A stretch of DNA of 64,000 nucleotides, from contig JAHPZH010000005.1 in assembly GCA_019058315.1 (NCBI GenBank), positions 32,001 to 96,000 of the forward strand, read 5' to 3'. Both the position numbers and the translations under genes were made by a program. The notes beneath the pieces were generated by a model. The model saw only the letters and a list, made by a program, of their open reading frames with translations. It ran no database searches and was not told the origin of the DNA. Of this stretch, positions 6,686-64,000 are shown one piece after another. This stretch comes from Candidatus Helarchaeota archaeon (GTDB lineage: Archaea > Asgardarchaeota > Lokiarchaeia > Helarchaeales > RDOG01). How positions within the stretch are numbered: position 1 is the stretch's first letter; the number at the start of each line of letters is the position of its first letter.

Positions 6686-6802
6686 TTTAAAAAACCCATT
6701 TGATCTTTTTCATATTTTAATTTTCTTAAATTCATTAAATAAATATATTTTATATTCATAAAATATATTAGTTACTTGAGAAAAAAGTAGGTAAATAAAA
6801 AA

Positions 6803-7612: not shown

Positions 7613-7840
7613 TGAAAATTTACTTTTATTAACTAAAGAATTTTAACATCTATAAAAACATATATTAAAATCCATTTATTTTTATTAATTCGTGATTTAA
7701 TTATCATGAGACCCGTTAAATTTCACGATTATAATAAAAGATAAATCAGAAAAAATTAGAAAAATCTGGTATATTTTAAAAAATAATGATTTTGGAGCGT
7801 ATAAAGGAATTATAATAAAGAATAGATTCCTTAATTTGAG

Positions 7841-8581: not shown

Positions 8582-8609
8582 TTATCAGATCGATTTTGGT
8601 ATTAATAAA

Positions 8610-9233: not shown

Positions 9234-9311
9234 AGTTATAAATTGTTTTAAAAATATTTAAAAAAACAGGAAATAAAATAAAAAAAGAATAATTAATTCA
9301 TTAAGTTTTTC

Positions 9312-10157
9312 TTAAGTCATAAGCTTCTTTTTAATTTTTTGAACAATATCATTGAATGCTTTGGCAGCTTCAGCGTCAGAATGCTTTACTATATAAGGTT
9401 CACCCTTGTCTTCTTCTACTCTGATCAGAGGATCAATTGGAATTGCACCTAAAAAGGGAACATCAAAGTCTTTAGCAGCTTTTAATCCACCACCTTCACC
9501 AAATAAGTCAATCTTTTCACCGCATTTAGGACATGTAAATCCACTCATATTTTCAATAATGCCGAGGACAGGAGTATTCAATTGTTTAGCCATATTGATC
9601 GCTTTTCGGGAATCTAATAATGCGACATCCTGTGGTGTAGTGACTATGATTACTTGTGCTCCTTTTATTAGCTGAAGGACAGAGAGTGGTTCATCTGAAG
9701 TTCCAGGGGGATTATCAACAATTAAAAAATCCAATTCACCCCAATTGACATCTGTAATAAATTGTTTAATTGCACCCATTTTCAATGGACCCCGCCATAT
9801 TACTGGAACATCTTCATTTTGTAATAAAAATCCCATCGACATAATTTTCATATTCAAAGGTCCGAATATTGGGGAAATACCTTTTTCAGTACCTGATGAG
9901 GGAGGGAGTGCAATGTTTTTCCCTATCATTTTGGGAACATTAGGACCCGTTATATCTACATCTAGTAGACCTACACGAAAGCCATTAAGAGCTAGTGAAA
10001 GTGCTAAATTTACTGCAACAGAGGTTTTTCCAACTCCGCCTTTACCACTCATAATAACGATTTTATGTTTAATTGTTTCAAGTTTCTTTGCTATTTGGCG
10101 ATCTTCTTCTTCAATTCTCTTTTTTTGTTCTTCTTTTAAATTTTCCATATAACTCAC
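9312..10157 (-). CDS. apbC: Mrp/NBP35/ApbC iron-sulfur cluster carrier ATPase
   Basis: SGKGGVGKT deviant Walker [36 protein letters not shown]. Confidence 0.95.
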
Positions 10158-10265
10158 AAATTACACAAAGATTTTAAACTTTTATGCTTTATTGTTATTC
10201 AAATATGAAATATTTTTGAAAGTTTTAGTTATAAATAGCAACTTATTTTTTTAGGTAAAAACATT

Positions 10266-10853
10266 ATGCTTGATAATAAAAATAAAAAAATCATAAATTT
10301 TCTACAAGAAAATGGCCGAAAATCTTTAAATGAGATAGGTAAACAACAAAATTTATCTCATACTAGCATTCAAAAACGGTTAAATAAATTAATATCTTCA
10401 AATTTAGTAAAAATTTCAGCAGTTCTGAATCTAAATGAACTTGAATTTTCATTTGCGGTTATAATAGCTGAAATAGAAGGTCATGATAATTTAACAAAGA
10501 TTATTGACACTTTTAAAAATTGTCCCCGAATTCTTTTTCTCAGTCCTATGATGGGGGGTCACAATTTAATTTCTATAATGGCATGTGAAGATGCTAGCTC
10601 TATGAACCAAATTATTAATGTATGCTCATTCCGGAACCATCCAGCAGTTAGAAGATCAGAAGTATATATATGCGATAGTCCGATTATACCACAATTTTTC
10701 AATTATCCAATTATTATTGAACATAAGGAGAAACAATCTCCATGTGGTATCACATGTTTGGAGTGTGAGAAATTTCAAAATGCGAAGTGTGTAGGATGTC
10801 CAGGGACGATACATTATAAATTTAACCAGAATAAGGGCAAATCAAAAAAATAA
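10266..10853 (+). CDS. Lrp/AsnC family transcriptional regulator with C-terminal Cys-rich extension
   Basis: LQENGRKSLNEIGK..NLSHTSIQKRLNKL HTH, RAM domain, then C-term PCGITCLECEKFQNAKCVGCP. Confidence 0.9.
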   Translation: MLDNKNKKIINFLQENGRKSLNEIGKQQNLSHTSIQKRLNKLISSNLVKISAVLNLNELEFSFAVIIAEIEGHDNLTKIIDTFKNCPRILFLSPMMGGHNLISIMACEDASSMNQIINVCSFRNHPAVRRSEVYICDSPIIPQFFNYPIIIEHKEKQSPCGITCLECEKFQNAKCVGCPGTIHYKFNQNKGKSKK

Positions 10854-48179: not shown

Positions 48180-49010
48180 CTAAATTATGACAGATTTTAA
48201 GGTTTCATCAACTAACTCATATGCAGATAGAAAAACATCCATATTTCCATTCCATACGGGGATTAAGAATTGTTTATATTTTTTTTCAAATTTTTTAATA
48301 AATTCTTTTAGAAATTTTTTCATTTGCGATGTTTCTCTATTTACTAATAAAACTCCAATCAATCTACTCTGAGGTACAGATTCTAACTTAGTTGGAGGCA
48401 AATCTATAGTCCCATATTCAAAAATGAGCTCTTTATCTCCCATGTCGATATTTCTTAATTTTTCTTCACTTTTAGTTATATGTCTTATAAGATGTCCTAT
48501 TGCATTTAATGCAGATGAAATGAGATGCGAATCTCCTACACCTAGTGGTTCGGGATTATATGAAAATAAGCAACGACCATCAAAATTAGCTACAAATAAA
48601 TTAAAAATTTTGGCTTTGTCAAATTCCTCTTCTAAATCTTCTTCAATAACAGTATCGACCTTTCTCTTTTTTTTAGGAGGAAGGGTTTCTACAATCATTC
48701 CTATTAAATTTGGCTTTTTTTTATCACTAGTATCTAAATTAAGCGTGTTACAAATATCTTCTAGTTCTTTTTTATCAAAACATATATCTAATAATTCATC
48801 TAGACCATAGGTGGATTCATACATAATTTTTAAACATAATGATTCTTTACTTTCGCTTTGTTGCCGAGAGATATTGGCTAATTCAACTAATTCTAATATT
48901 TTCTTTTTTGAAACAAGGTTGGAGAGAAGAATATCATCAAAATGTTTAATTTGTTTTTCTTTTTTAATTGATTTACGTCCTTTTTTTATCCTCTTTGGAA
49001 TTATTATCAC
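48180..49010 (-). CDS. SAP/HeH-like motifs plus C-terminal longin domain
   Basis: KKELEDICNTLNLDTSDKKKPNLIGMI is SAP-like; NLFVANFDGRCLF...HLISSALNAI...FIKKFEKKY is longin. Confidence 0.7.
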   Translation of the reverse strand: MIIIPKRIKKGRKSIKKEKQIKHFDDILLSNLVSKKKILELVELANISRQQSESKESLCLKIMYESTYGLDELLDICFDKKELEDICNTLNLDTSDKKKPNLIGMIVETLPPKKKRKVDTVIEEDLEEEFDKAKIFNLFVANFDGRCLFSYNPEPLGVGDSHLISSALNAIGHLIRHITKSEEKLRNIDMGDKELIFEYGTIDLPPTKLESVPQSRLIGVLLVNRETSQMKKFLKEFIKKFEKKYKQFLIPVWNGNMDVFLSAYELVDETLKSVII

Positions 49011-49207: not shown

Positions 49208-52200
49208 ATGGGAGATTTCAAGATGAGAATTAATAATTTTAAAAGAAAAGGAAAGATTTTCACAATTCTGATTATCATGCTTATTAGTTTTTCAAACATT
49301 CATTATATCTTTCAGAAAAATCAGCTTGATCCATATAATTTAGCATTATTTACAAATATTTTTACTTCTAATATAAGAATGCCTTCTAATGATGGTCCAT
49401 TTTCCACTAAGTCCTCCTCTAGTGATGTCATTGAGGGTAATGGAGGAAAGTTAGACACTTTATTATATGAAAATATTAGTGGTCAAGTTCTTTCTTGTGA
49501 TACTTCTTCTGATTTTTCTATTTATACAAATGGATGGAATATAACCAAAACAGATCTAATTTTCACAAATGTTAAGGCACCAACAGATATAGATATTGAA
49601 ATATCAGAACCATTTGCGGGTGAACATAGATTGGATACTTTAAGAGCGATGTCATTTACTGTAGGAAGCGTTACCTATTTAAAGAAAATAAATGTTAATT
49701 TGCGATTAAAAAAACTCTACCCTGGTAATGATTTAGATTTATCTGTATTTAATACAAAAGCTACTGGGGAACCCAATAATATTATTTATAATGAAGGATT
49801 TGATTTAGATAGCTATTCTGATGGTTGGATTGAATTAAATTTAAGTTCGGATGTCCTATTGGACCCTGCTGATACTAATAATAGTAAATTTTTCATAGGG
49901 TTAAAAGAAGGTTCTATTTTACCTTCTCCTCAAGTCTATTGGTATTATTTAAATGATCTCTCTACCCCAGATGGTTCAAATGAAGGTGATGACTATTCTT
50001 ACAGTTTTGGAATGTGGACTTCTAATGATGTAGATTATACTTTAGGTCTCACATTAGATACTAATACATTACCATCAAATATAGAATTAAAAGTGAATGG
50101 TATTAATGTGGAGAATTTACAAATAGGTAATGGTACTTGGAATTCATCTGTTTTATATATTGGACCTAATGTTACTTTTAATGTCGAAGCAAATACTTCA
50201 GCGAGATTTGATGTAAATTGGACATGTCAATTTATAAATCAAACATTATCTAATACTTATTTTATTTCTAATGCGAGTAAATCAATTGTCAATTGGAATT
50301 CATCTATTCCAGCTAAATTTCATGCTAATTCATATGCTAGAGGCATTAATATGACAATACCCCTAGATTGGAATATTACTGAAGTAATATATGATTCTAG
50401 CTCACATTTATCTTGGGTTAATATAACAGAAAATGGTAAAAAAATTAATATTATATCCAATGTTTTTAATTCTACCTGGATAGCAGTTTGTATTGGACCA
50501 AACTATGTACGTGAAATAAGCTTAGAAAGAAAGGTTGATTCTAGCTTCACTCCTGTTAACGGTCCAGTTAATGGAACAGATACTATTAGAATAAACGCAT
50601 CTATAAAAGACGGTAAGGGTATTGAAATAATTAATGGGAATGGAAATTTATCTATTTTTAATCCAGAAGAAACTCTAAATTATATTGATCATACACCCCC
50701 AAACAGTACCCATGCTTTAAATGGAATTATAAGTTTTACACCTTGGCGAATTAATTTAACTGGAACAATGGGTGGAAATTATACAATTCAAGTAGTATGG
50801 TATAACCAGACAGAAGTGGGGATAAATGTTACTTCTATTGATATTAAATCAATTCCAACTCAATTAACATTGATTTATAATACCATATCGGCTAATACAG
50901 GGGATCCAATTGATGCTATAATATATTATAACGACTCATATTGGGGATATGGTATTCCAAATGCTAATTTTTATTTAATTAATAACTATACTTCTGGTTA
51001 CCATTTTGATTTTACTGTAACTCCATTATCACCAATGGGTAATTATTCAATTGCAATTTCTACAGCTACATTAACCGCAGGCTCTTATGAATTTATTATT
51101 ATTGCTAATAAATCAGTATATAATACATCAACTGTTAATATCACATTTACTATTCAAGGGAATAAATCTTATGCTTGGATTGTTTCTGGAGCTACACCAG
51201 TTGGACCGTTACTTGGTGGAAGAACCTTAGATGATGGATCTTTTGTTTACGATAATTACACAACAACTCCTTTAAATGATCCCTACTGGGATGATACTTC
51301 TCATAAACTTACAATTTATTACAATGATACTGTAGGAAATCCTATTACAATCGAAGATGTTGATCTGGTTGAAATCAGATGGGATAATAACGAGACAGAC
51401 ATTATCCCAACTTTAGTGGGATCTGGCTTATATAATGTAACCATTGATACAACAGGAATTACTGCTGGAATACATTTCTTTTCAATCATTATGCAAACTT
51501 CTAATTATTATAGAGCATATTTGAATGTGAGTGTAACTGTAAAACCCGTTCCTACTCAAGTTGACCCCGGATTATATGGAAATGTTACTCAATATGAAGG
51601 AGAGGATTTAGAATTCTGGGTGGCATATTTAGATGTTTATCATTCAAATCAACGGATAGAATCTCCACCAGCCATTGTAAAATATAATATTACGGGCTTT
51701 CCAAATATAAATGGAACCATGACATATATAGGAGCCCCAAATTTTGCTTATCGTGGTGAATTTAACCTTGGAGACTTAAGTCTGGGATCTTATAACTTAA
51801 CCATCTATGCTAGTGCTGGCACTGAATACCTTGAAGCAATTAGAAATATAACCGTTAATGTAATTCCAAAATATAATGTCTCTTTAAACTTAATTGATAT
51901 TCCATTTGGTATTAGAGTTGGAGAGGAATTAATCATTAGAGCAAAATTAATTAATGATATTACAGGTGATCCTCTCAAGTATGTGCCCATAAATGTAAAA
52001 ATTACTTTTCTTGATAGTCAAAATGGAACCATATCAGAATTAGAAGCGGTTCTAATCACAAATAATAATGGAACAATAGAAGAATCCTTAATTGTTCCTC
52101 AAAATGTGAAATATGCTAATATTTCTTTATTTTATAACGGGGATGTCAATGTAACTTCGGCAGTAAATAACACAATTCTTAATATCGCCCCCAAAAGATC

Positions 52201-53920
52201 AGTTCATTTGATAGTATTTTCTCCAACACCTACAATATGGGTGGGGGAACTTTTATTTATTGGTGCAAGTTTAACATACGGAGATACTGGGGAAGCGATT
52301 TTTGATGGATCTGTTGAGTTTGAAATAATATTTTTTGGTGAAAGAATTCTCCGATTTACTCAGATTGGAAAAACAGGTTCTGATGGAATTACTTATATAA
52401 GTTTTCCTATTCCATCAGATATTTCGGGAGTTTATTTAATTATGATAAATGCACGACATTCTGGGTCAAATACCGAAGCTTCAACTACTTCAAATCTGTT
52501 TCCTATTAATCTGCTATCAACAGGAAGAATTTTTATAGAAAACATATGGCTTTTTATAGCAATAATTGGAGCGGTTTCTGCTATGGGGACTTATAAAACA
52601 TGGAATTATTTGAGAAATAGAGGGTGGAAGAAGAAGATTGACCATTTATTTATAATAACGCATGGGGGTTCACCTATAAAAGAGTGGAAAATGGGGGGAG
52701 CTATACTAGACGCAACTTTGGTTTCGGGAGCCTTAAGCGGGATTGCATCTATTGTACGAGAAATGACAAAAAGTGTTAAAAAATTAACTTCAATTGATCA
52801 TGAAGATAAAAAATTAATATTTGCTTATGGTAAATTTGTAATTGGGGTATTAATTACTGAAAAAGATCAACCAATAATACATAAAAAACTAGATAAATTT
52901 GTAGATAATTTTGAATCAAAGTATTTTTATTATTTATCCTCTTGGGATGGTAATTTAAAGTATTTTCAAGATGCAGATGATTTATTAGTTGATATTTTCC
53001 CATTTGCAATCCCAGAGACTGTTCAAGAAAAGATTAAATTATATCCAGATATTATTAAAAAGGAAAATAGAATAAGAGAATTAAATATTGAAGCGGGACA
53101 TCTTCTTATGGAAAATAAACCAGCTATGGCAATTGAATCTTATATAGTTGCTGCTAAAATAGCTATTGAAATTGGAGACTTAGAAATATTTGAGAATTTC
53201 ATTATAAATATAAATAATCTTCAAAAAAGACTCTCAAAATTTGAAAAAAGACCAATGAGAAAATTAGATATTAAAACCGAAACTAAAGATAAAAAGAATC
53301 TTGCAACTAATATCGAAAAAATTCAAAAAGCAATAAAAATCTCAGACTTCCTTACAGCATTAAAATTAACTACAAAAAATGCAAACATTTACATGGACCT
53401 AGGGCAATATGAAATTGTTTCAGAATTGTTTCAAAAGATCAATGAATATGGTAAAAAACACAAATTGAAAATGAGAGAGATTCAGTTAAAAGAAAGAACT
53501 CAAAAAACCACAGATAAGATCAACAAGTTGAAAATGAAAGCTGAACTAGAGATTGAAAATGGAAATTTTTTAAAAGCTGCTGATAAGTATAATGAGGCTG
53601 CTATACTCGCAATACAAAATAATGATAGAGATAACTTTCAAGACCTTATGTCAAAAGTCGAAAAATATCAAAAAACTGAAGAAGAGACTACTTTGAAAGC
53701 AGAAAAAGAACGACAATTACTAATTCTTAAGGAATCAATACCGAGGATATTAGCAGAGGCAGAATCAGCAAAACTATCTGGTGATTATGAAAAAATAATT
53801 GAATTATATTTAAAAGTAGCCAATATCAATCAAAGTATAGGTCATATGGAAAATTTTATGAAATATATAACAATAGCGAAAGAATATAGGACAAAACTTG
53901 AAAATTTTACAAACAAATGA
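49208..53920 (+). CDS. Large single-pass surface protein: extracellular beta-sandwich repeats, TM, cytoplasmic longin + TPR/SNAP-like repeats
   Basis: N-term hydrophobic signal; about 1080 aa rich in N-x-S/T and G.Y.i Ig-like patterns; TM IWLFIAIIGAVSAMG (~52545-52600); longin HLFIITHGGSPI...LVSGALSGI; helical repeats AIESYIVAA, AADKYNEAA. Confidence 0.82.
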   Translation: MGDFKMRINNFKRKGKIFTILIIMLISFSNIHYIFQKNQLDPYNLALFTNIFTSNIRMPSNDGPFSTKSSSSDVIEGNGGKLDTLLYENISGQVLSCDTSSDFSIYTNGWNITKTDLIFTNVKAPTDIDIEISEPFAGEHRLDTLRAMSFTVGSVTYLKKINVNLRLKKLYPGNDLDLSVFNTKATGEPNNIIYNEGFDLDSYSDGWIELNLSSDVLLDPADTNNSKFFIGLKEGSILPSPQVYWYYLNDLSTPDGSNEGDDYSYSFGMWTSNDVDYTLGLTLDTNTLPSNIELKVNGINVENLQIGNGTWNSSVLYIGPNVTFNVEANTSARFDVNWTCQFINQTLSNTYFISNASKSIVNWNSSIPAKFHANSYARGINMTIPLDWNITEVIYDSSSHLSWVNITENGKKINIISNVFNSTWIAVCIGPNYVREISLERKVDSSFTPVNGPVNGTDTIRINASIKDGKGIEIINGNGNLSIFNPEETLNYIDHTPPNSTHALNGIISFTPWRINLTGTMGGNYTIQVVWYNQTEVGINVTSIDIKSIPTQLTLIYNTISANTGDPIDAIIYYNDSYWGYGIPNANFYLINNYTSGYHFDFTVTPLSPMGNYSIAISTATLTAGSYEFIIIANKSVYNTSTVNITFTIQGNKSYAWIVSGATPVGPLLGGRTLDDGSFVYDNYTTTPLNDPYWDDTSHKLTIYYNDTVGNPITIEDVDLVEIRWDNNETDIIPTLVGSGLYNVTIDTTGITAGIHFFSIIMQTSNYYRAYLNVSVTVKPVPTQVDPGLYGNVTQYEGEDLEFWVAYLDVYHSNQRIESPPAIVKYNITGFPNINGTMTYIGAPNFAYRGEFNLGDLSLGSYNLTIYASAGTEYLEAIRNITVNVIPKYNVSLNLIDIPFGIRVGEELIIRAKLINDITGDPLKYVPINVKITFLDSQNGTISELEAVLITNNNGTIEESLIVPQNVKYANISLFYNGDVNVTSAVNNTILNIAPKRSVHLIVFSPTPTIWVGELLFIGASLTYGDTGEAIFDGSVEFEIIFFGERILRFTQIGKTGSDGITYISFPIPSDISGVYLIMINARHSGSNTEASTTSNLFPINLLSTGRIFIENIWLFIAIIGAVSAMGTYKTWNYLRNRGWKKKIDHLFIITHGGSPIKEWKMGGAILDATLVSGALSGIASIVREMTKSVKKLTSIDHEDKKLIFAYGKFVIGVLITEKDQPIIHKKLDKFVDNFESKYFYYLSSWDGNLKYFQDADDLLVDIFPFAIPETVQEKIKLYPDIIKKENRIRELNIEAGHLLMENKPAMAIESYIVAAKIAIEIGDLEIFENFIININNLQKRLSKFEKRPMRKLDIKTETKDKKNLATNIEKIQKAIKISDFLTALKLTTKNANIYMDLGQYEIVSELFQKINEYGKKHKLKMREIQLKERTQKTTDKINKLKMKAELEIENGNFLKAADKYNEAAILAIQNNDRDNFQDLMSKVEKYQKTEEETTLKAEKERQLLILKESIPRILAEAESAKLSGDYEKIIELYLKVANINQSIGHMENFMKYITIAKEYRTKLENFTNK

Positions 53921-53932
53921 GGGCGTGTTATA

Positions 53933-54451
53933 TTGGAGAAAATAATTTATAAAATTCTTTTATTAGGTGATCCTGGAGTAGGTAAAACAGCTCTTATAAC
54001 TCAATATATTGATAATAGATTTATAACTGATTATAAAGCCACTCTTGGATTTGATATCTTTATCAAAAAAATTATAGGATCCAAAGCAGAATTTTCATTA
54101 GCAATCTGGGATCTCGCGGGACAAGAGAAATATACATCCTTAAAACAATCATATTATGAAGGTGCCCAGGGAATTATTATGGTATATGATGTAACAGACC
54201 GAGAAAGCTATAAAAATATAATACAGTGGTTAACAGAATTGCAAAAAGTAGTAAAAACAATTCCTATTATGTTAGTAGGAAATAAAATTGATTTAACTGA
54301 CGAAATTAAAATCAATACAGAGGATGGGCAACGACTTAAAACAAGAATTAAAGCAATTAATTTTTATGAGACTTCAGCAAAAACTGGACATAATGTTAAT
54401 ACAATTTTTGAAGAACTTGCAGATATTATTAATAAACATTCATCGATATAG
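53933..54451 (+). CDS. Rab-like small GTPase
   Basis: G1 GDPGVGKT, G2 YKATLG, G3 WDLAGQE, G4 NKID, G5 ETSAK; no C-terminal Cys prenylation motif. Confidence 0.95.
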   Translation: MEKIIYKILLLGDPGVGKTALITQYIDNRFITDYKATLGFDIFIKKIIGSKAEFSLAIWDLAGQEKYTSLKQSYYEGAQGIIMVYDVTDRESYKNIIQWLTELQKVVKTIPIMLVGNKIDLTDEIKINTEDGQRLKTRIKAINFYETSAKTGHNVNTIFEELADIINKHSSI

Positions 54452-54513: not shown

Positions 54514-54906
54514 TTGAATTTAGTTTTAGAACACGACATTTCCTACTATTGCAAAAAATTTAACTGTGGAAAATGCTGTGAAAAGGGTTGGGATATCTTT
54601 GTTACTGAATCTGATATAAGAAAGTGGGAGGAAAAAAAACCTGAAATCTTAAATCAAATAACAACTAAAAATATAAATGGAATAAGAAAAAAATTGCTTA
54701 AAAAACAACCAATCAAACTGCTAGATGGAAAAATACGTCAATTATGTGTGTTTTATGACTTTGAAAAAAAATGTACTATACACGATGTAAATCCTGAAAT
54801 ATGTAAGAAATTTTCGTGTTTGCATCATGTCTATTTCATTTTTCAATTTTTTAATAAAATTTCTGAATTAATAGAAGAATCTGATAAGAAAATGTTGAAC
54901 TCTTAA
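54514..54906 (+). CDS. YkgJ family cysteine-cluster protein
   Basis: CKKFNCGKCC...CVFY..KKCTIHDVNPEICKKFSC. Confidence 0.85.
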   Translation: MNLVLEHDISYYCKKFNCGKCCEKGWDIFVTESDIRKWEEKKPEILNQITTKNINGIRKKLLKKQPIKLLDGKIRQLCVFYDFEKKCTIHDVNPEICKKFSCLHHVYFIFQFFNKISELIEESDKKMLNS

Positions 54907-54927: not shown

Positions 54928-57588
54928 ATGGCTTATATGAAAGATGAACTTCGAGAAGAAGACTCTAATATCGAGCAAAAATTAAAAGAAACTCAAATTA
55001 AGAGTGAGTTTGATTATCAAAATTTATTTAATGATATTCCTTGTGCTCTTTGGGTTATAAATTTTTCAGATATTAAATTGTACATTGATGAATTACGTAA
55101 TAAAGGAATTAAAGATTTTAGATCTTTTTTTAAAAATGACCCTGATTTTTATTCAACTTGTGTTTCTTTCATGAATATTATAGATGTCAACAGAGCAGCT
55201 ATACAATTATATCAAGCCAAAAACAAGGAGGAAGTTTTACAATATTTAAATGATACCTTTTGCAAAGAATCTTTAGATTTATTTTTAGAAGGAATTATTT
55301 CTATAATTGAGGGTAATTTACCGTTTGAAGGCGAGACTATAATTCAAACTATAAAGGGAAATAAAATTAATGTATTTTATAATTGGTTTATAGCTTCTGG
55401 TTTTGAAAAAAGCTTATCTAAAGTATTTGTAAGTCTCCATGATATTAGTGACCGGAAACAAATAGAATTATTATTACGTAAAGAACGAGATTTAGTCCAA
55501 AAATATCTAGATTTAATTGGAGTTCTTCTTATAACTTTAAATAAAAAAGGTGAAATAACCCTTATCAATCAAAAAGGATATCAGACTTTAGGATATGAAG
55601 AACAAGAGCTTATTGGTAAAAATTGGTTTGATAATTGTTTACCAGAACGAAATATAGAGGAAGTGAAATTAGTTTTTCAAAAATTAGTGGTAGGAGAAAT
55701 TGAACCAGTTGAATATTATGAAAATCCAATTATAACTAAAAGTGGTGAAGAAAGAATTATCGCTTGGCATAATACTGTTTTGACAGATGATATTGGAAAT
55801 ATTATTGGAATATTAAGTTCTGGAGAGGATATTACTGAGCGAATAAGAGGAGAAAAAAAATTAGCAAACCAAATGTATTTAATTGAGTCTATAAATACAA
55901 TATTAAAAGAAGCTTTAAGATTAGACAGTGAAATAAATGTTGCCAAAATGTGTCTAATTTTTGCTGAGGAGTTGACGAATAGCAAATTTGGCTTTATTGG
56001 TGAAATAAATGAAGATGGATATTTCGATACTATTGCTTTAAGTAATCCAGGATGGGAGGCGTGCACCATGGAAAAAACCGCTGCAATAAAATTACTTAAA
56101 AACATGGAGATTCGCGGCATTTGGGGGGAAGTTTTAAAAAGTGGGAAAACTTTAATAGCAGATGATCCCGAATCTCATCCTTCAAGTGTTGGTACTCCTG
56201 TTGGTCACCCAAGATTAACAAGTTTTTTAGGAGTTCCGTTATTTTACGCTGGAAATACATTTGGAATGATTGCTGTGGCTAATAAAGAAATAGAGTATAA
56301 TTCTGATGATCAGCAAGCCATAGAAACTCTTTCAATATCATTCATGGAAGCTTTGATGAATAAAAGAGCAGAAATAAAACTAAAAAATGCCAAAGAAACA
56401 CTTTTAGAAGCGCAAAAAATAGCTCATATAGGAAATTGGGATTGGAATATAGTTACTAATGAATTAAGTTGGTCTGATGAAATTTACCGCATATTCGGGC
56501 TTGCTCCACAAGAATTTGGAGCAACATATGAAGCATTTTTAAATAGTGTCCATCCCGACGATAGAGAATTTGTTACAAAATCCGTTAATGAAGCCATTTA
56601 TGATAAAAAACCTTACTCTATTGATCATCGTATTATTTTACCTGATGGGACACAACGAATAGTACATGAACTAGGTAAAGTTACATTTGATAAGGATGAT
56701 AAACCAATTAGAATGTTAGGAACTGTCCAAGATATCACCGAATTAAAGCTAATTGAAAATGAATTAAAGAAACATAGGGACAACCTTGAAGAATTAGTTT
56801 TAGAGCGTACAAGAGAATTGGAATTAGCAAATAAAAAACTTCAATTAGAAATTGAACAAAGAATAAAAGCTGAAAAAGATCTGGAACTATTCGTATATGC
56901 AGTTTCTCATGAAATAAGAACACCAATTTCAGTTTTAGTCCAATCTATAGATAATTTAGAGGTTTATGGAGAAAAATTATCAGAGAATTTGAAATCAAAA
57001 TTAATAAAAACGATGTCTAGAAATACATCATTATTATCCGAATTAATAGAGGATCTTTTATTAGCTTCAAGGATAGAAAGAACAGAAATAGAATTAAAGT
57101 GGGAAAATTACAAGCTATTCGATGTTTTAAAAGATGTATTAGACCAAATGGAACCTCGTTACAAATCAAGAGGAATAAAAATTGATACAGATGTGGATAT
57201 AAATATTCAATTATTTGGTGATATCAAACGTATTGCACAGATCTTTCGAATATTTATTGATAATGCTATAAAATATTCAAAAGAAAGATCACTGATAAAG
57301 ATTAAAGTATTTAATAAATATAAAGGAGAATTTAATCCGAAATCAATTGATGGTGTTTTAATTCAGTTCATTGATAATGGAATAGGTATTAAGAAGGAAG
57401 ATATCCCTAATTTGTTTAAAAAATATTTCAGATCTAAAGACGCAATGAATATTCCTGGTACAGGTTTAGGACTAACTATTGCAAAAACTCTAACTTATTA
57501 TCATCAAGGAGAAATATTTGTAGAAAGTGATTATGGTAAAGGAACGACTTTTTCCATTTTTCTTCCCAGATTAGAGGAACAACCATAA
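54928..57588 (+). CDS. Cytoplasmic PAS-PAS-GAF-PAS sensor histidine kinase
   Basis: PAS motifs (ELIGKNWF, WSDEIYRIFG..VHPDD), GAF (SFLGVPL..GMIAVAN), H-box VSHEIRTP, N-box DNAIKYS, DNGIGI, GTGLGL. Confidence 0.95.
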   Translation: MAYMKDELREEDSNIEQKLKETQIKSEFDYQNLFNDIPCALWVINFSDIKLYIDELRNKGIKDFRSFFKNDPDFYSTCVSFMNIIDVNRAAIQLYQAKNKEEVLQYLNDTFCKESLDLFLEGIISIIEGNLPFEGETIIQTIKGNKINVFYNWFIASGFEKSLSKVFVSLHDISDRKQIELLLRKERDLVQKYLDLIGVLLITLNKKGEITLINQKGYQTLGYEEQELIGKNWFDNCLPERNIEEVKLVFQKLVVGEIEPVEYYENPIITKSGEERIIAWHNTVLTDDIGNIIGILSSGEDITERIRGEKKLANQMYLIESINTILKEALRLDSEINVAKMCLIFAEELTNSKFGFIGEINEDGYFDTIALSNPGWEACTMEKTAAIKLLKNMEIRGIWGEVLKSGKTLIADDPESHPSSVGTPVGHPRLTSFLGVPLFYAGNTFGMIAVANKEIEYNSDDQQAIETLSISFMEALMNKRAEIKLKNAKETLLEAQKIAHIGNWDWNIVTNELSWSDEIYRIFGLAPQEFGATYEAFLNSVHPDDREFVTKSVNEAIYDKKPYSIDHRIILPDGTQRIVHELGKVTFDKDDKPIRMLGTVQDITELKLIENELKKHRDNLEELVLERTRELELANKKLQLEIEQRIKAEKDLELFVYAVSHEIRTPISVLVQSIDNLEVYGEKLSENLKSKLIKTMSRNTSLLSELIEDLLLASRIERTEIELKWENYKLFDVLKDVLDQMEPRYKSRGIKIDTDVDINIQLFGDIKRIAQIFRIFIDNAIKYSKERSLIKIKVFNKYKGEFNPKSIDGVLIQFIDNGIGIKKEDIPNLFKKYFRSKDAMNIPGTGLGLTIAKTLTYYHQGEIFVESDYGKGTTFSIFLPRLEEQP

Positions 57589-57648
57589 AAAAATATATAT
57601 AGAAAATGAAATGTAATATATCTGATGAAATAAAAAAGGAGTTTCAGC

Positions 57649-58536
57649 TTGAAGCCATTAATACTATGTGTAGATGACAATGAAGATATTTTATTAAATC
57701 TACGGTTAACATTAGAATTTAATGATTATGAAGTAATCACGGGAAAAAATGGCATAGAGGGTATAATCATATTATCCGAACTCGGGCGACTTCCAGACAT
57801 CATAATAAGTGATATAATGATGCCCGAAATGAATGGATATGATTTCTTTAAAAAAGTTTCTGAAAACTCGAAGTGGAATCGCATTCCATTTTTATTTTTA
57901 ACAGCTCGAACTTCTCCAACAGATGTTAGATTTGGCAAAATGTTAGGTGTTGATGATTATCTTACTAAACCCTTTAAAAAAGAAGATTTGATGGCCATAA
58001 TTGCTGGAAAACTTGCTAGAAGAAGAAAAACAGAAGAAGTTAGTGAAAAAGTTGAAGAAGTTCTCTCCTCTTTAAAAATTGATGAAAAACCTTCAATCTC
58101 TATTGAAGAAAAATTTTTAGTAAATTTATTATTAGTGTTTTGGGACGATAAAACGGGTCCTAGGGTTTTAAATTACTATCCAAAAGACATTAAATTACCT
58201 TTTTCTGTTGATAAAATAGGTGTTCAATTATATAATTCTATAGTTTCTATTTATGGACAAGGAAAAGTTGCTGAAGCTCAAGGTATATTATTAAATATAA
58301 AAAATATCGAGAGGGATGGTTTTATTTATTTTGATTCATATCCAGATAGTTCAATCAGAGGAGGTGAACAACAATATATGTTGGGGGTTATTGCTCCAAA
58401 GATTAATTATTTTGAATCTTTAAAAATTGGTGAACGCTTTAAACATATATCTTCACATATTAAATTAAAGGAAGATTGGGATTTTAAAAGTCATTGGGAA
58501 GAAATTGCAAATCTTTTATCAACTCCTTCACTGTAG
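57649..58536 (+). CDS. Response regulator with C-terminal uDENN/longin-like output domain
   Basis: Receiver VDD, ISDIMMP (phospho-Asp), FLTA, KP. C-term LLLVFWDDKTGPRVLNYYP...DSSIRGGEQQYMLGVI. Confidence 0.85.
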   Translation: MKPLILCVDDNEDILLNLRLTLEFNDYEVITGKNGIEGIIILSELGRLPDIIISDIMMPEMNGYDFFKKVSENSKWNRIPFLFLTARTSPTDVRFGKMLGVDDYLTKPFKKEDLMAIIAGKLARRRKTEEVSEKVEEVLSSLKIDEKPSISIEEKFLVNLLLVFWDDKTGPRVLNYYPKDIKLPFSVDKIGVQLYNSIVSIYGQGKVAEAQGILLNIKNIERDGFIYFDSYPDSSIRGGEQQYMLGVIAPKINYFESLKIGERFKHISSHIKLKEDWDFKSHWEEIANLLSTPSL

Positions 58537-58668: not shown

Positions 58669-58956
58669 ATGATGACAAAACAAGATTTTGAGATATATTT
58701 AGATTATATGATAGATTATTACGGAGTGGAAAGATCAGAATTACGAATATCGGCTTATAAGGTGCAAGGTGATGATAGCTATGAATTTTTCGAGAGTGCT
58801 AGAATAATTTCGATTTTAGAGTCAGGAATTATGGTTTGGAAATATGAGGATGAGGAAGAAGAGGAAAATGAGTCAGCATTCGTCTCATGGTCCGCCATAG
58901 ACGAAATTTCAATAATGCTAAGAGAAGTCGATGAAGATGAAGAATATGAAGATTAA
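58669..58956 (+). CDS. Small acidic hypothetical protein
   Basis: 95 aa, D/E-rich; AAGGT SD-like motif upstream. Confidence 0.65.
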   Translation: MMTKQDFEIYLDYMIDYYGVERSELRISAYKVQGDDSYEFFESARIISILESGIMVWKYEDEEEEENESAFVSWSAIDEISIMLREVDEDEEYED

Positions 58957-58961
58957 TTTTT

Positions 58962-59888
58962 TCAATCCTTTCTACTTAATAAATTTTCAGCTTTATAGTG
59001 TATAATTGTTGCTCCATGCTTATAATATTCTTTTAATGTTATCCAATTTTTTGAAGGATATTCAAACTCTTTAAGAGATCCAAGTATAGAAGAACCAAGC
59101 CAAGAAGAATATTGTTCAGCTTGAGTGATTTTAATAGGAAAGGTCGCTAAATTTTCTAATTCCTTTTGTAATCGTGCTTTCATACCCTTAATTTTTAACC
59201 CTGATACTATTATGTTCTTGGATAAATCTTCTCTAATAGTTGAATCTAGTTTCATTAGGGTATCAAAAATTTCTACGTCCAAAGGTTTTATCTTATCTTT
59301 ACCCGTCATTTTAGGTTTAAAATAGATTTCTGGAGCTAAAAATAATTCATCTAATTCGAGTGTAGTACCATCAGGTAATGTATAAGATTTTTTACTACTT
59401 TCCTTATCAGGATCTAGTGCTACAAAACAAAGTTTTTCGCGAATATCTCTTAAAATTTCCCTTTCTGCTGAAGTACGAAAATCATAACTCTTTTTTTTTA
59501 GGATCTTTTGTAGATAACTCGTTACATCTTCAATTCCTAAATCTATTTTTTTGATAAAATCAGTTAATGGGTAAGAATCCCAAACTGGTACGATATAAGT
59601 TGGATTTTTTAACCTAATAACTAACCCAGTAGTTTTTCCAACACACATTGCATCTGCCAAAGCTGCATTGACTAAAAGTATAGCCGGAATATTAAAATCT
59701 TCAAATAGAAAGCTACAAATCTTTTCCCTTTGTGACCTAGAAGTTAGTGGATGCTCGATAAGGATTAATCCGTGTTCAGATGGATCGATTTTTAAATCAT
59801 TATAGAAAATATAATGAACAAATTTCTTTATAGCATTAAAATCGACTATTTCTTCATTAATTATTGGAAATGTATTTCTTAAAACCAT
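58962..59888 (-). CDS. Divergent, N-terminally truncated actin-family protein
   Basis: FYNDLKIDPSEH, REKI..FLFEDFNIPA, TSAEREILRDIREKLCFVALD, SYTLPDG, YSSWLGSSILGSL, WITLKEY..HGATIIHYK all match actin from about residue 65 onward. Confidence 0.92.
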   Translation of the reverse strand: MVLRNTFPIINEEIVDFNAIKKFVHYIFYNDLKIDPSEHGLILIEHPLTSRSQREKICSFLFEDFNIPAILLVNAALADAMCVGKTTGLVIRLKNPTYIVPVWDSYPLTDFIKKIDLGIEDVTSYLQKILKKKSYDFRTSAEREILRDIREKLCFVALDPDKESSKKSYTLPDGTTLELDELFLAPEIYFKPKMTGKDKIKPLDVEIFDTLMKLDSTIREDLSKNIIVSGLKIKGMKARLQKELENLATFPIKITQAEQYSSWLGSSILGSLKEFEYPSKNWITLKEYYKHGATIIHYKAENLLSRKD

Positions 59889-59894
59889 AAGATT

Positions 59895-60914
59895 TCACCT
59901 CAAAAATTTTTGTAACAACTCTTTCATACTCTTCGGAAGTTGTCCATTAGATTCTAAATCTAAAATAAAATCTTCTACAAGATCTACTTGGCTTAGTGCT
60001 ATGGCAACAATGAGGTCTGGAATGTCTGGAGTATTTTCCAGCATAAAATGTTCTCCTTGCGTGATATTTGCAATTTCTTTAAAGATTTTTTCAGTTTTAC
60101 TATCTTTTACAATTTGTATAGTGTAAACTTTAACCTCATTAGAAGCTAACTTTTTTGATTCTTCTCTCCAATTCAATTTCTTTGGACATTGGGAAGGATC
60201 GTGTGGGGGAGCGTCCGCGATTAATATTGCGATCTTTTTAACATTTACCCATTGAAAATCTTGAAGAGAGCTTAATGCATCCTCAACCGCCTCTGGAATA
60301 TCTCCCCCACCATCTGCAGTCCATTCCTTTATAAAACTTGTTAGTTCTGAATAATATTGGGATTCTGTAAACGGGTAACATTTTAGTAAATAAGAACTTT
60401 CTTCGTCACAATGATCACGATAGGTTAAGGCACCAATTCGAACTCCTGGAATTTTTTCTGATAGAAAGTAAAGCATTCTAGCAATTTCCTTTTTTATGGC
60501 CCCAAGAGCAGATCCCATAGAACCTGTAGAATCAGCCACTACAACTAAGTCAAGCATTCCTAAAGATTCAATCTTTTCTTTTATCATTCTACACATATCT
60601 TTGTCATTTAAAGATTCCATAAAAGCTAAAGCTCGTTGATAAGCCTTGTAAGCATAACCCATCTTTTTTATTGATTCAAATTCTCTAGCAGCCTGTAACA
60701 TTGTTTTTCCGGCTTTTTCAGGTTCTCCTTGTTTATCTTGTAATGATGCTATCGAAACTAGAGTAATTACGGCTTGTAGCTTTAGATTTCGATTAATAAA
60801 TGTTTCACGTAATTTCATATAATTATTAATAGCTTTTTTCCAAGCTTTATTTTCCATTTTCAGGCAAATTTTATCCGAAATCGCTTTCAATTCATACTCA
60901 ATTTCACTTAACAT
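59895..60914 (-). CDS. TPR/SNAP-like helices + VWA domain protein (paralog B)
   Basis: LDLVVVADSTGSM MIDAS, YRDH, GGGDIPEAV, ILIADAPPH. ATG 60914 aligns with the paralog start. Confidence 0.88.
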   Translation of the reverse strand: MLSEIEYELKAISDKICLKMENKAWKKAINNYMKLRETFINRNLKLQAVITLVSIASLQDKQGEPEKAGKTMLQAAREFESIKKMGYAYKAYQRALAFMESLNDKDMCRMIKEKIESLGMLDLVVVADSTGSMGSALGAIKKEIARMLYFLSEKIPGVRIGALTYRDHCDEESSYLLKCYPFTESQYYSELTSFIKEWTADGGGDIPEAVEDALSSLQDFQWVNVKKIAILIADAPPHDPSQCPKKLNWREESKKLASNEVKVYTIQIVKDSKTEKIFKEIANITQGEHFMLENTPDIPDLIVAIALSQVDLVEDFILDLESNGQLPKSMKELLQKFLR

Positions 60915-60936
60915 TCCATTATCACAATCCAAGGAA

Positions 60937-61965
60937 TCATATTAATTCTTTAAGGAGCTCCCTTTTACTTTCTGTGAGTTTTCCTTCAGATTCTATATCA
61001 ATAATAAAATCTTCTGCTAAATCAAATTGATGTAATGCTATTGCTACGATTAGATCTGGTAAATCAGCTGTGTCGGATAAAAGAAAAGATTTTGATTCTG
61101 TTATCCTAGCAATTTCTTTGAAACTTTCTATAGTTCTCACATCATTACCACAAATCACAGAATAAACTTTTATTTCATCATTTGCTAATTTTGCAGAAAT
61201 TTTTTTCCAGTCTAATTTATTAGGACATTTTTCAGGGGGGTGTGGGGGTTCATCAGCTATTAATATTGATATTTTTTTAACAGATTCCCATTCGTAACCT
61301 TTTTGAAGGTAGTCTAATGCGTCTGCAACTGCCTCACCACCATCTCCACCCCCACCATCAGGCACCCAGCTATCTACAAAAGAAACCAATTTGGCTATTT
61401 CAGAAGATACTTGTTCAATGAATGGTTGAGCTTTAATCAGATAAGAAGTATTTTCGTTACAGTGGTCTCGGTAAGTTAAAGCACCTATACGAATGCCTGG
61501 GATTTTATCTGACATCTTATATAGCATTTTCGCTATTTCTTTTCTAATAGAATCAAGACCACTTCCCATCGATCCTGTAGAGTCGATCACAATTACTAAA
61601 TCTAGCATTCCGAGAGATTCTATTTTCTGCTGAATATTTTTTACTTTACCAATTTGATCACATGATATCATAAGGTCTAGAGCTCTTTGATATGCCTTGA
61701 ATGCATAACCCATTTTTCTATGTTCTTCGAATTCATTAGCAGCACTTAACATAATATTTCCAGCTTTTTCGACCTGACCAATCGTTTCTAACAACGAAGC
61801 AATACTCACAAGCGTTAAAGTGGCTTGAGAGTTTAATTTAGCTTCAAGAAAATGCTCACGTATTCTCTCATAGTCTTTAATTGCAACGATCCAAGCTTTA
61901 TTGCACATATTAAAATGAATTTCTTCTGATAATGTATTCATTTCATATTCTATTTCTTTTAGCAT
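60937..61965 (-). CDS. TPR/SNAP-like helices + VWA domain protein (paralog A)
   Basis: LDLVIVIDSTGSM, YRDH, GGGGDGGEAV, ILIADEPPH. Confidence 0.88.
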   Translation of the reverse strand: MLKEIEYEMNTLSEEIHFNMCNKAWIVAIKDYERIREHFLEAKLNSQATLTLVSIASLLETIGQVEKAGNIMLSAANEFEEHRKMGYAFKAYQRALDLMISCDQIGKVKNIQQKIESLGMLDLVIVIDSTGSMGSGLDSIRKEIAKMLYKMSDKIPGIRIGALTYRDHCNENTSYLIKAQPFIEQVSSEIAKLVSFVDSWVPDGGGGDGGEAVADALDYLQKGYEWESVKKISILIADEPPHPPEKCPNKLDWKKISAKLANDEIKVYSVICGNDVRTIESFKEIARITESKSFLLSDTADLPDLIVAIALHQFDLAEDFIIDIESEGKLTESKRELLKELI

Positions 61966-61981
61966 TTTGAATTACAGACCT

Positions 61982-64000
61982 TTACTCTATTTGGAGTATA
62001 TTTACTGAAGAGTTTGCTCTTAAATCTACATTATACATTGGATAACCCACCGTCTCCTTTACAATTATTTCTCCCGGTTTTGTTGCAGTCATATTATAAG
62101 TTAAGGTTATTGATCCATCCAATTCATTTAGATAAAGATTCAATTTGTCACTAGTTAATTTATATGATGTGATTTGATATTCTTCCACCAGTTTCTTTAA
62201 TGATTGTTCCACAACTAAAAAACCAGCGGGGATAGGTTCCTCTATTGCAAACATTCCCTGTTTTTCGGTTGTTGTTATATTAAGTTTAACACTTATGGAA
62301 TCATTCTGTGCAACTTTATTTGAACTGAAATCTCTTGTTATTGTTAACATTTTGGGTTTTAGAAGATATTCTTTAGGATACCATGCTTCTATTGTTAAAT
62401 CGTACACTAATAAGCCCTCACCATTCTTTTCTAATATCAATTTATTTTCAGAATTTAGATTATCTAACGGAATATTTCTCATATCATAAACAATATGTTC
62501 TAAAGTGTCTTCATTTACTTCGAATTCTCCTATTACCTGTTTATTAAAAATTGCCTGTGTTAGAAAATTCGTTTTTTCGCTTCTTGCGCAATTAGAAAGA
62601 CAAAGAATAGCGGCTATAGTATCTGATGTTGTACTCCATCCACCACCTTTAGCGCGATTAGCCATAATATAATTTAAGACCCTTTGAACATTTACTGGAT
62701 CTCCTCCTGCAATATTTAAAGCTAGTGCAGCATAAGCTGTAGATTCAACTTTTCCAGCTAGTGATGAACCAACGTCCCAATAGACGAAATCGCCTTCATT
62801 ATGAGCTGATGTATTTAATTTTTCTATAAGGAGGTTCAATTCCTTATTGTATTTATTTGACCCTTCTTTAATGATGTCGATTATTAAATAGGCTAATAGG
62901 TTTGGGTCGTTCGTTCTCTTTGAGGAGAGGATAGCGTTTGATATAATATTTTCTAAAGCTTTGTCAATAATTTCTTGATTTACGTTATATCCAGCTTTTT
63001 TAGCCTCGAGTAATGCTTGTATAACATACGCTGTACAGAAGTCTTTCCCTCGTCTATTTGATTCCCAAGTCCCTTGAGAAGTTTGTATTTTCTTTAATTC
63101 TTCTATTGCAGCATTAATTAGTTTTTTTTCTATAAAAAATCCCGAGTTAATTGTATAAGCCAAACCAAACAATACATAGGCTGTAGTGAAAGGCTCTGAT
63201 TGCTCATTTCCCCAATATCCCCAACCACCACGGTCATTTCGAAGACTTATTAATTGTTGAATACCCTTAGTTGTCATTTCTTCAAATTGTTCTTGGAATT
63301 TGTTAGTAAGCATATTATTTTCTTTTAGCAGATTGTAAACTAGAACGTTAGGTAAAAATTTCGACATAGTTTGTTCTACACAACCATGAGGATATCCTAA
63401 TATCGATTCTAATCCATCCATGCAACCCATTTGATAACCAGGTATCAATGAAAGGCGTGCTTTATAAAAAATTGCGTCTCTTGGTATAGTTGGAGATATA
63501 TTAATAATTTCATCTTCCAAAATAAGTCCCGTATATCTGAAAATATGAGGTTCTCCTTTAGGATTTATTTTTATTTTTTTTCTTAAGACATCAATATGCT
63601 TCGGTGTTTTAGCTTCGATCCAAAATGTCGCCTCACCTGGATTAATTGCTTTCAATTTGAAATCGAGACGTTTCATCCCATTTGCAGGAACGAGAATATT
63701 CCCTTTCGGTATGTCAACTTTTAATTTATATTTATCAGCATTTAAATTAACGTTACATTCTAAGTTTTCTTTTGTTAGATTTGTCAAAATTATTCCAAGT
63801 TGAATATTATCTCCATGAGTTAAAACTGGTGGGATATCAAGTTTTGCAAAAAAATCTTGTTTAACTGTAATTCTATGAGTTCCCATACCTATCTCACAAT
63901 CTTTTGTACTTGCAAACACTGTCAACTCATGACTTGTTATCTGATCTGGTAGCTCTGTTTCTAGCATAGATTGACCATCTGATTCTAGGAATGGAATCCA
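61982..64000 (-). CDS. Alpha-2-macroglobulin / thioester-containing protein (5'-partial)
   Basis: Frame open to the window edge (WIPFLESDGQSMLETELPDQIT). FFAKLDIPP.L..GD, YPHGCVEQTMS thioester (63371-63385), GGWGYW, VESTAYAALA, GGWSTTSDT, IEEPIPAGF, YPMYN. Confidence 0.93.
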   Translation of the reverse strand, partial: WIPFLESDGQSMLETELPDQITSHELTVFASTKDCEIGMGTHRITVKQDFFAKLDIPPVLTHGDNIQLGIILTNLTKENLECNVNLNADKYKLKVDIPKGNILVPANGMKRLDFKLKAINPGEATFWIEAKTPKHIDVLRKKIKINPKGEPHIFRYTGLILEDEIINISPTIPRDAIFYKARLSLIPGYQMGCMDGLESILGYPHGCVEQTMSKFLPNVLVYNLLKENNMLTNKFQEQFEEMTTKGIQQLISLRNDRGGWGYWGNEQSEPFTTAYVLFGLAYTINSGFFIEKKLINAAIEELKKIQTSQGTWESNRRGKDFCTAYVIQALLEAKKAGYNVNQEIIDKALENIISNAILSSKRTNDPNLLAYLIIDIIKEGSNKYNKELNLLIEKLNTSAHNEGDFVYWDVGSSLAGKVESTAYAALALNIAGGDPVNVQRVLNYIMANRAKGGGWSTTSDTIAAILCLSNCARSEKTNFLTQAIFNKQVIGEFEVNEDTLEHIVYDMRNIPLDNLNSENKLILEKNGEGLLVYDLTIEAWYPKEYLLKPKMLTITRDFSSNKVAQNDSISVKLNITTTEKQGMFAIEEPIPAGFLVVEQSLKKLVEEYQITSYKLTSDKLNLYLNELDGSITLTYNMTATKPGEIIVKETVGYPMYNVDLRANSSVNILQIE

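Follow-up and report, generated by a model that had tools for sequence, protein, structure and literature searches.

A response regulator with a predicted longin output domain of the FLCN/SMCR8/NPRL2 class, encoded beside a Rab-like GTPase in an Asgard archaeon

The DNA described here is a 64,000-nucleotide stretch of a Candidatus Helarchaeota archaeon (assembly GCA_019058315.1, contig JAHPZH010000005.1, positions 32,001 to 96,000), referred to as the window. The host genome is a 5.79-Mb Asgard metagenome-assembled genome (MAG) with ~30% G+C. Six genes lie in one orientation between 49208 and 58956, with intergenic gaps of 12, 62, 21, 60, and 132 bp. They encode, in this order, a membrane protein of 1570 amino acids (aa), a Rab-like small GTPase, a CxxCxxCC protein, a soluble sensor histidine kinase, a response regulator, and an acidic protein. 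The subject of this article is the response regulator (57649..58536, + strand), a protein of 295 aa with a TTG start that, according to its open reading frame (ORF), its Pfam match, and structure prediction, consists of a receiver (REC) domain and a longin output domain. Its likely client is the Rab-like GTPase of 172 aa (53933..54451, +), which is of the Ras/Rab type (PF00071, E 1.4e-54). In the original prediction, kinase and regulator were described as co-oriented downstream of this GTPase gene and the regulator as a canonical receiver joined to an output other than a helix-turn-helix (HTH) domain. Gene order, the exact ORF positions, the PF00072 match to residues 5–118, and the lack of an HTH agree with this description.

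The histidine kinase (54928..57588, +; 886 aa) shows the Pfam domain order PAS, PAS, GAF, PAS, HisKA, HATPase_c, with matches to PAS_3, PAS_9, GAF_2, HisKA, and HATPase_c, and the histidine of its H-box is residue 661. Its gene ends 60 bp before that of the regulator. The receiver of the regulator (residues 5–118; 57661..58002, +) matches PF00072 with an E value of 1.3e-21 and 77.3 bits, compared with a gathering cut-off of 30.2 bits. All five receiver residues are present: the acidic pair D9 and D10, the phospho-acceptor D55, T85, and K107. This pairing of kinase and regulator is common, as a co-oriented kinase gene lies directly upstream of ~42 of 55 REC-longin genes that were annotated and placed in a tree. 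The 55 genes comprise 47 genome loci, four assembly loci, and three host-genome copies, with one locus (L031) carrying two genes. Orthologues of the regulator are of equal length and up to 87% identical.

The output domain comprises the 156 residues from 140 to 295 (58066..58533, +). No Pfam or NCBIfam family matched these residues, and in the whole regulator NCBIfam recognized the receiver only. An alignment of 34 homologous domains (A1) was made, and an AlphaFold2 model of the output domain reached a predicted local distance difference test (pLDDT) score of 91 and a predicted template modelling (pTM) score of 0.87. The topology of the model as assigned by DSSP is β-β-α-β-β-β-α-α, which is that of longin domains. 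When the model was compared with the PDB by Foldseek, the best 22 matches were all longin domains, with E values from 1e-4 to 8e-3. They stem from NPRL2/NPRL3 of GATOR1, FLCN/FNIP2, DENND10, DENND1A/B with Rab35, Lst4, the SEA complex, and a Lokiarchaeal Roadblock-Longin protein. All are longins of the GTPase-activating protein (GAP) or DENN class, and a non-longin fold is not indicated. The structural matches to DENND1 are confined to its N-terminal longin lobe. PAS/LOV-like sensors appeared only far down the Foldseek list with probabilities below 0.8, and such an identity was dismissed.

Pairwise structural alignment by VIA-align ranked the Lokiarchaeal Roadblock-Longin protein first (8yqg_B, Z 12.8, root-mean-square deviation 2.9 over 131 aligned residues), followed by Lst4 (Z 11.6), FLCN (11.0 and 10.8), C9orf72/SMCR8 (10.7), and DENND1B (9.9); the longins of TRAPP, Ykt6, and Sec22 and the roadblock proteins scored lower. 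A fold search of the ESM Atlas returned as its top match, at a template modelling score of 0.75, an Asgard cluster of 341-aa GTP-binding proteins with Arf/Ras/Roc domains, which can be read as longin–GTPase fusions. It was followed by Asgard clusters with partial Folliculin/NPR2 annotation and then by eukaryotic clusters of SMCR8, DENND11/Avl9, and NPRL2. In a feature search of the protein atlas, all clusters returned were unnamed ones from Asgard archaea, and each scored below 0.8.

The same relationship appears at the sequence level once the profile is broad enough. When the PDB was searched with profile A5, which was built from REC-fused, tetratricopeptide repeat (TPR)-fused, and GTPase-fused members and is broader than A1, it matched human C9orf72 at E 0.0017 and SMCR8 at E 0.043, in both cases along the entire domain; beyond these two, it returned designed helical proteins only, with E values of 0.3 or worse. 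The narrow 34-sequence profile A1 gave nothing meaningful against the PDB, and the single sequence P0183 gave nothing. Neither Pfam Folliculin (PF11704) nor NPR2 (PF06218) matched the regulator, and no DENN model of Pfam did so; nothing follows the longin domain, whose last residue (295) is also that of the protein.

Taken as structure prediction and profile alignment, these comparisons confirm the output domain as a longin of the FLCN/SMCR8/NPRL2 (GAP-longin) class and indicate that it is homologous to the catalytic longins of C9orf72-SMCR8, FLCN-FNIP, and GATOR1. The likeness to NPR2/folliculin/DENN longins that the original prediction had drawn by eye is thus upheld by the predicted structure, the fold searches, the secondary-structure topology, and the residue-level profile alignment to C9orf72/SMCR8. 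Of its label uDENN/longin, the longin part holds and the strict uDENN part does not, because a DENN core is lacking; the domain is better described as a stand-alone longin, as in yeast Lst7. For the same reason, a true DENN protein was excluded, as was a DNA-binding regulator, since the protein contains no HTH.

The output domain carries the motifs of the catalytic members of this class. The strings WDDKTGP and IRGGE on which the original prediction had relied are present at residues 165–171 and 236–240. The first contains the WD motif (W165-D166) and the GP motif (G170-P171), which are located on the β1–β2 hairpin (58141..58161, +); across the family, their W, G, and P vary little or not at all. 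In the alignment obtained with profile A5, the family WD..GP is matched with W33-D34..G38-P39 of C9orf72, GP in addition with the GP of SMCR8, and the family arginine, R237 in the regulator (58357..58359, +), with the catalytic finger R147 of SMCR8. R237 is located in the loop that joins model strands 83–93 and 101–110, which correspond to β4–β5; its equivalence to the finger derives from the sequence alignment and the predicted secondary structure and not from a superposition. Among 261 aligned family rows, the WD, GP, and arginine residues hardly vary, and an arginine occupies the R237 position in 212 of the 240 rows without a gap (88%). FLCN, NPRL2, and SMCR8 have in common an arginine finger and a GP motif on strands one and two, and the WD motif is found in C9orf72 (PMC12290439). 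According to the same 2025 survey, GP is specific to GAP-type longins and absent from other longins (PMC12290439). SMCR8 R147 and FLCN R164 both reside on the longin β4–β5 loop (bioRxiv 10.1101/2020.04.16.045708). By alignment and model, the longin of the regulator carries all three motifs that the eukaryotic GAP complexes require, namely WD, GP, and the candidate arginine finger R237, which is a predicted catalytic residue.

The domain family was found in Asgard archaea only. A word-indexed search found 56 relatives, and an exhaustive search with a limit of E ≤ 0.001 found 177 cluster representatives; wherever the source is named, it is an Asgard MAG, and the labels of the closest relatives are Helarchaeota, Hodarchaeota, or Promethearchaeota. 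A survey of REC-longin fusions, which had been suggested for Asgard genomes, yielded 47 loci in species-representative genomes, all of them Asgard. In most architectures, the domain is C-terminal and follows REC (in most cases), PAS, DUF1638, or kinase-REC hybrids; it is N-terminal only where TPR/SNAP-like repeats come after it. Some members have an additional C-terminal domain X, as REC-longin-X or longin-TPR-X, and this domain belongs to the second longin family described below.

The host genome contains five copies of the output domain, of which three are fused to REC and one to PAS, whereas the fifth ends a 560-aa protein. One of the REC-fused copies forms a paralogous kinase and REC-longin pair on contig C1 (G000:C1:450900-463200), and four GTPase genes follow within ~5 kb, encoding Rab-like and Arf/Rag-like proteins, some with extra domains. 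This pair is situated in a ~70-kb stretch dense in histidine kinases and GTPases. The third REC-longin copy (G000:C5:359493-360374) shows one in-frame TAA in the genome search, and the ORF scan gives a 292-aa frame ending there; this copy may be intact but shorter, or broken.

A first connection to GTPases is provided by eight Rab-like GTPases of the host genome, which possess an N-terminal domain homologous to the output domain of the regulator. In hhalign, the output family and a homogeneous subfamily of these GTPase extensions were aligned over 125 columns with a probability of 92% and an E value of 5e-7, and the motifs GP..YP and D...RGG are shared between the GTPase-fused domain and the output domain of the regulator. 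When all N-terminal GTPase extensions were pooled in one mixed alignment, hhalign detected no relationship to A1.

The second connection is genomic. A small-GTPase gene is found within 5 kb of 36 of the 45 untruncated REC-longin genes, compared with a background expectation of ~18% for a window of equal size (106 GTPase ORFs in 5.79 Mb). At least five linked arrangements occur: an Arf/Rag-like gene is located upstream in 26 cases and a Rab-like gene upstream in three, the GTPase gene is downstream in five (at 39–685 bp or more), and it is divergent in two. The most uniform group is a clade of 29 genes, 26 of which have an Arf/Rag-like GTPase gene immediately upstream of the kinase gene; of the remaining three, two are truncated loci and one has no GTPase gene nearby. 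GTPase, kinase, and regulator are colinear in 25 loci of this clade, separated by medians of 79 and 54 bp; in 24 of these 25, a gene for an ArsR-type regulator is positioned a median of 44 bp further upstream. The GTPase of this cassette matches Arf (9.6e-23) and Gtr1/RagA (1e-17), and its consensus shows the motifs GLDNSGKTS, WDLGGQ, and FLHKFD. In Rag/Gtr proteins, a G4 motif of the form HKxD is typical.

The large-clade cassette of ArsR, Arf/Rag-like GTPase, kinase, and REC-longin belongs to a larger block, seen at L021:4379-16388 and in ~25 related loci; in L021, the Arf/Rag-like GTPase gene lies at 6673-7218, the kinase gene at 7337-9508, and the regulator gene at 9572-10480. This block also holds genes for AsnC-type regulators, ferredoxin, SfsA, HSP20, a thioredoxin-reductase-like protein, and two or three thioredoxins, as well as an MFS_MOT1 transporter, a second kinase, and CCG-domain proteins. 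Its composition hints at a redox or stress input.

The clade to which the regulator of the window belongs is mixed in its GTPase arrangement. The window shares the order Rab-like GTPase, CxxCxxCC-like gene, kinase, and regulator with L055 (87% identity) and L056 (62%); the locus L057 is cut at the kinase. In other members, the GTPase gene lies downstream, at 39–67 bp in L046 and L008 and as a run of GTPase genes in the C1 paralogue and L031, and in L012 and L015 it is upstream and divergent. Orthologues of the window GTPase (84–48% identity), which are named “Rab family GTPase” in their sources, track the regulator orthologues, and two of them are on the same contigs. The original prediction had the regulator wired directly to the GTPase; of this, a putative link between the two is supported by conserved gene order and by the domain fusions.

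The first gene of the operon encodes the 1570-aa membrane protein (49208..53920, +), in which a large N-terminal part, rich in N-x-S/T sequons, is followed by a transmembrane helix near residue 1107 and then by a cytosolic longin domain and helical repeats. This longin domain (residues 1138–1275; 52619..53032, +) is of a second, TRAPP/Fuzzy/Mon1-like type. It was modelled by AlphaFold2 with a pLDDT of 87.7; in VIA-align, it matches TRAPP Trs23/synbindin and Fuzzy with Z 13.5 and Mon1-Ccz1 with Z near 11, and there is a weak Pfam match to Fuz_longin_1 (E 0.03). A gap of 12 bp separates the gene from that of the Rab-like GTPase, and in L055 an orthologue occupies the same position. The second longin family, characterized by a LISGFLTAIQSF-type motif, is greatly expanded in the host genome, where jackhmmer gave 167 domain hits, including a few that were counted twice because sequence sets overlapped. 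Its members include stand-alone proteins of ~136 aa, larger ones of ~355 and ~1120 aa, and Rab-like GTPases to which the domain is fused at the N terminus. One more member is encoded divergently from the operon, a 276-aa protein with a C-terminal second-type longin domain (48183..49010, −; found by jackhmmer and hmmsearch), and a counterpart of 276 aa is encoded directly upstream of the GTPase gene in L056. Trs23/synbindin, Fuzzy, and Mon1-Ccz1 are longins of exchange-factor complexes. It is therefore suggestive that the Rab-like GTPase may be flanked by a membrane-anchored longin of the guanine nucleotide exchange factor (GEF) type and a phospho-controlled longin of the GAP type.

Between GTPase and kinase, the operon encodes a CxxCxxCC putative Zn/Fe-chelating protein of 130 aa (54514..54906, +; PF03692, E 2.3e-7). 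L055 has a CxxCxxCC gene at this position, as L056 probably does. The last gene encodes a highly acidic protein of 95 aa (58669..58956, +), for which neither Pfam nor NCBIfam gave a family match; its size is conserved, with a gene for 95–96 aa directly 3′ of the regulator in L055 and L057 as well. The remainder of the window (58962-64000, −) holds a gene for a 308-aa actin-family protein, which matches only positions 65–408 of the Pfam actin model, followed by genes for two paralogous VWA proteins and an alpha-2-macroglobulin-like protein. This order of actin, VWA, and alpha-2-macroglobulin genes recurs downstream of the orthologous regulator in L057.

The reading we favour, at a rough probability of 0.55, is that the regulator acts directly on the neighbouring GTPase in a manner dependent on its phosphorylation. 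Herein, the kinase would sense a cytoplasmic signal by means of its PAS and GAF domains and would phosphorylate D55 of the regulator. The phosphorylated receiver would then alter the oligomeric state or the accessibility of the longin domain, probably by dimerization, and thereby a paired-longin platform of the kind used by eukaryotic GAPs would be formed. A homodimeric pocket is conceivable because one polypeptide bears both the C9orf72-type WD motif and the SMCR8-type arginine. This pocket would act on the Rab-like GTPase (53933-54451), most likely by stimulating GTP hydrolysis. Phosphotransfer, GTPase binding, dimerization, and an activity as GAP are thus what we infer; within direct action on the GTPase, a GAP is more likely than a GEF or an effector.

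Several observations weigh against this reading. The regulator has neither a DENN domain nor the C-terminal domain of NPRL2, and a partner longin subunit was not identified for it. The Pfam Folliculin and NPR2 models are reached by a few family members only, and only below threshold (Folliculin in relatives with E 0.034 and 17.7 bits, at a cut-off of 23.3). The PAS-fused members of alignment A1 (P0054-P0056) lack the arginine and the RGG motif while keeping WD and GP; by analogy, these may parallel the non-catalytic partner subunits of eukaryotic GAP complexes. No GTPase gene is close to nine of the 45 untruncated loci or to two of the five host-genome paralogues, the host genome is very rich in small-GTPase genes, and the adjoining GTPases belong to two different classes, which blurs specificity. 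In addition, ~20 kb around the large-clade cassette are syntenic, including unrelated HSP20, thioredoxin-system, and MFS genes; much of the linkage in this clade could therefore reflect inherited gene order instead of selection, and hence the repeated and differently arranged juxtapositions in the mixed clade are more telling. A complex prediction for two longin copies with the window GTPase, made with alignments, scored 0.00, which is below the mark and carries no weight either way.

The strongest alternative keeps the GTPase as partner and differs in activity: the longin output would bind the neighbouring GTPase as an exchange factor platform, or as a phosphorylation-dependent effector or localization factor for its GTP-bound form. 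Longin/roadblock platforms are mainly GEFs (TRAPP, Mon1-Ccz1, DENN) and only occasionally GAPs (PMC10933270), the uDENN domains of DENND1 are among the structural matches, and Myxococcus RomR with RomX, long called a GEF of MglA, is now reported to be an effector of MglA-GTP (PMC13408092). Gene linkage and domain fusions, moreover, argue for a GTPase partnership and not for any particular activity. What speaks for a GAP is the predicted catalytic site: WD, GP, and the β4–β5 arginine are all present and match C9orf72 and SMCR8 residue for residue, the arginine is kept in 88% of the family, and GP is reported to be specific to GAP longins (PMC12290439). We therefore regard a non-GAP partnership as rather unlikely.

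Less probable still is that the longin serves as a generic interaction or dimerization output unrelated to GTPases, acting for example in stress, redox, or another membrane process, with the GTPase genes nearby by inheritance or chance. Some longins, such as SNAREs and adaptor sigma subunits, indeed do not regulate GTPases (PMC10933270), and the ArsR and AsnC regulators, HSP20, thioredoxin-reductase-like protein, thioredoxins, and CCG-domain proteins flanking the large-clade cassettes suggest a redox or stress locus; the nine untruncated loci without a GTPase gene and the sheer number of GTPase genes point the same way. Chance or inheritance, however, accounts poorly for a linkage that recurs in several independent arrangements with two GTPase classes and at short distances (medians of 79 and 54 bp, 39–67 bp in downstream cases), and a generic output accounts poorly for a domain type that is fused directly to Rab-like GTPases and whose conserved arginine, WD, and GP have a known role only in GTPase catalysis. 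That the fusion is decaying or non-functional, or that the longin similarity is a modelling artefact, is very improbable: one host-genome paralogue has an in-frame TAA and the structure is a prediction, but the family numbers 177 cluster representatives (E ≤ 0.001) with strongly conserved motifs, orthologue length is constant, and the high-confidence model is joined by independent sequence-level matches to C9orf72 and SMCR8.

A phosphorylation-dependent GAP of this kind can be compared with several known systems. C9orf72-SMCR8 (CSW), FLCN-FNIP, and GATOR1 are GAPs for Arf, Rab, and Rag proteins. They share with the regulator the longin fold, GP on β1–β2, WD as found in C9orf72, and an arginine at the finger position between β4 and β5, and their clients resemble the Arf/Rag-like GTPases that neighbour the regulators of related loci. 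In contrast to these complexes, the regulator lacks a C-terminal domain of the DENN or NPRL2 kind; as one polypeptide, it could form a homodimer, whereas they are heterodimers; it would be controlled by a receiver instead of lysosomal nutrient sensors; its likely client in the window is Rab-like; and its GAP activity is predicted. Asgard proteins with the GP motif have been described as proteins that contain a Folliculin/SMCR8 longin domain (Traffic 2025, PMC12290439). Those are stand-alone longins whose GTPase partners were left as a question, whereas here the longin is the output of a response regulator whose gene adjoins a GTPase gene.

In Myxococcus, MglA, MglB, and RomR-RomX likewise place a prokaryotic small GTPase under a protein of the roadblock/longin superfamily and a receiver-domain protein. 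Receiver and roadblock GAP are separate there, however, the output of RomR is not a longin, and the roadblock protein MglB has no such arginine finger. Thaumarchaeal REC-NitrOD3 regulators also have a receiver fused to a Roadblock/LC7-related output, but they belong to another lineage, their output is roadblock-like, and no GTPase link was reported for them (Galperin et al. 2018, PMC5847659). The same census lists no REC-longin regulators for Asgard archaea (PMC5847659).

The closest precedent is that of Liu et al. (bioRxiv 10.1101/2020.10.19.343400, Fig. 5c; Nature 2021), in which many Asgard fusions of NPRL2-like longins with two-component domains are presented and growth regulation by two-component systems with eukaryote-type regulators is proposed. 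Those fusions have in common with the present regulator the Asgard origin and the combination of an NPRL2/FLCN-class longin with a prokaryotic two-component module. In the accessible text, the treatment concerns architecture only; it reports neither a conserved operon with small-GTPase genes nor an experiment, the motifs and the arginine of the fused forms are not analysed, and the interpretation draws on analogies to amino-acid starvation and mTORC1. The prokaryote/eukaryote hybrid signalling route put forward in the original prediction is hence supported but not new: both the architecture and the idea are already published, and the regulator is a further example. The operon was not described in any paper returned by literature searches that combined REC with longin or Asgard with histidine kinase, GTPase, and longin. 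In the literature searched, there was likewise no account of a conserved small-GTPase operon, of two GTPase classes, or of a residue-level match of REC-longin proteins to the catalytic motifs of C9orf72/SMCR8.

Since the fusion itself is published, what makes the system valuable is that the linkage to GTPase genes is conserved and that the motifs match at the residue level. Asgard genomes encode around a hundred small GTPases and still more longin/roadblock proteins (PMC10933270). According to Tran et al., the GTPase genes are generally not in operons with longin genes, and because of this rarity almost no GTPase–longin partner pairs can be assigned in Asgard archaea (PMC10933270). The Asgard clients of GAP-type longins were explicitly left open by the 2025 survey (PMC12290439). 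In the cassettes described here, a GTPase, a kinase, and a regulator form defined triplets; a catalytic arginine is predicted in them, and receiver phosphorylation would be a natural on-switch. The ancestry of longin-based Rag, Arf, and Rab GAPs thereby becomes directly testable in vitro. In its most far-reaching form, which we put forward as a tentative and somewhat doubtful possibility, the cassette would do in a prokaryote what the Rag/Arf-GAP nutrient-signalling modules GATOR1, FLCN, and CSW do in eukaryotes. A His-Asp phosphorelay would dimerize an arginine-finger longin GAP and so switch off the co-encoded Rab-like or Arf/Rag-like GTPase, and the upstream membrane-anchored TRAPP/Fuzzy-type longin would supply the opposing exchange. 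If true, this would represent a complete and genetically compact GTPase cycle in an archaeon, and clients would be assigned to the GAP-type longins of Asgard archaea.

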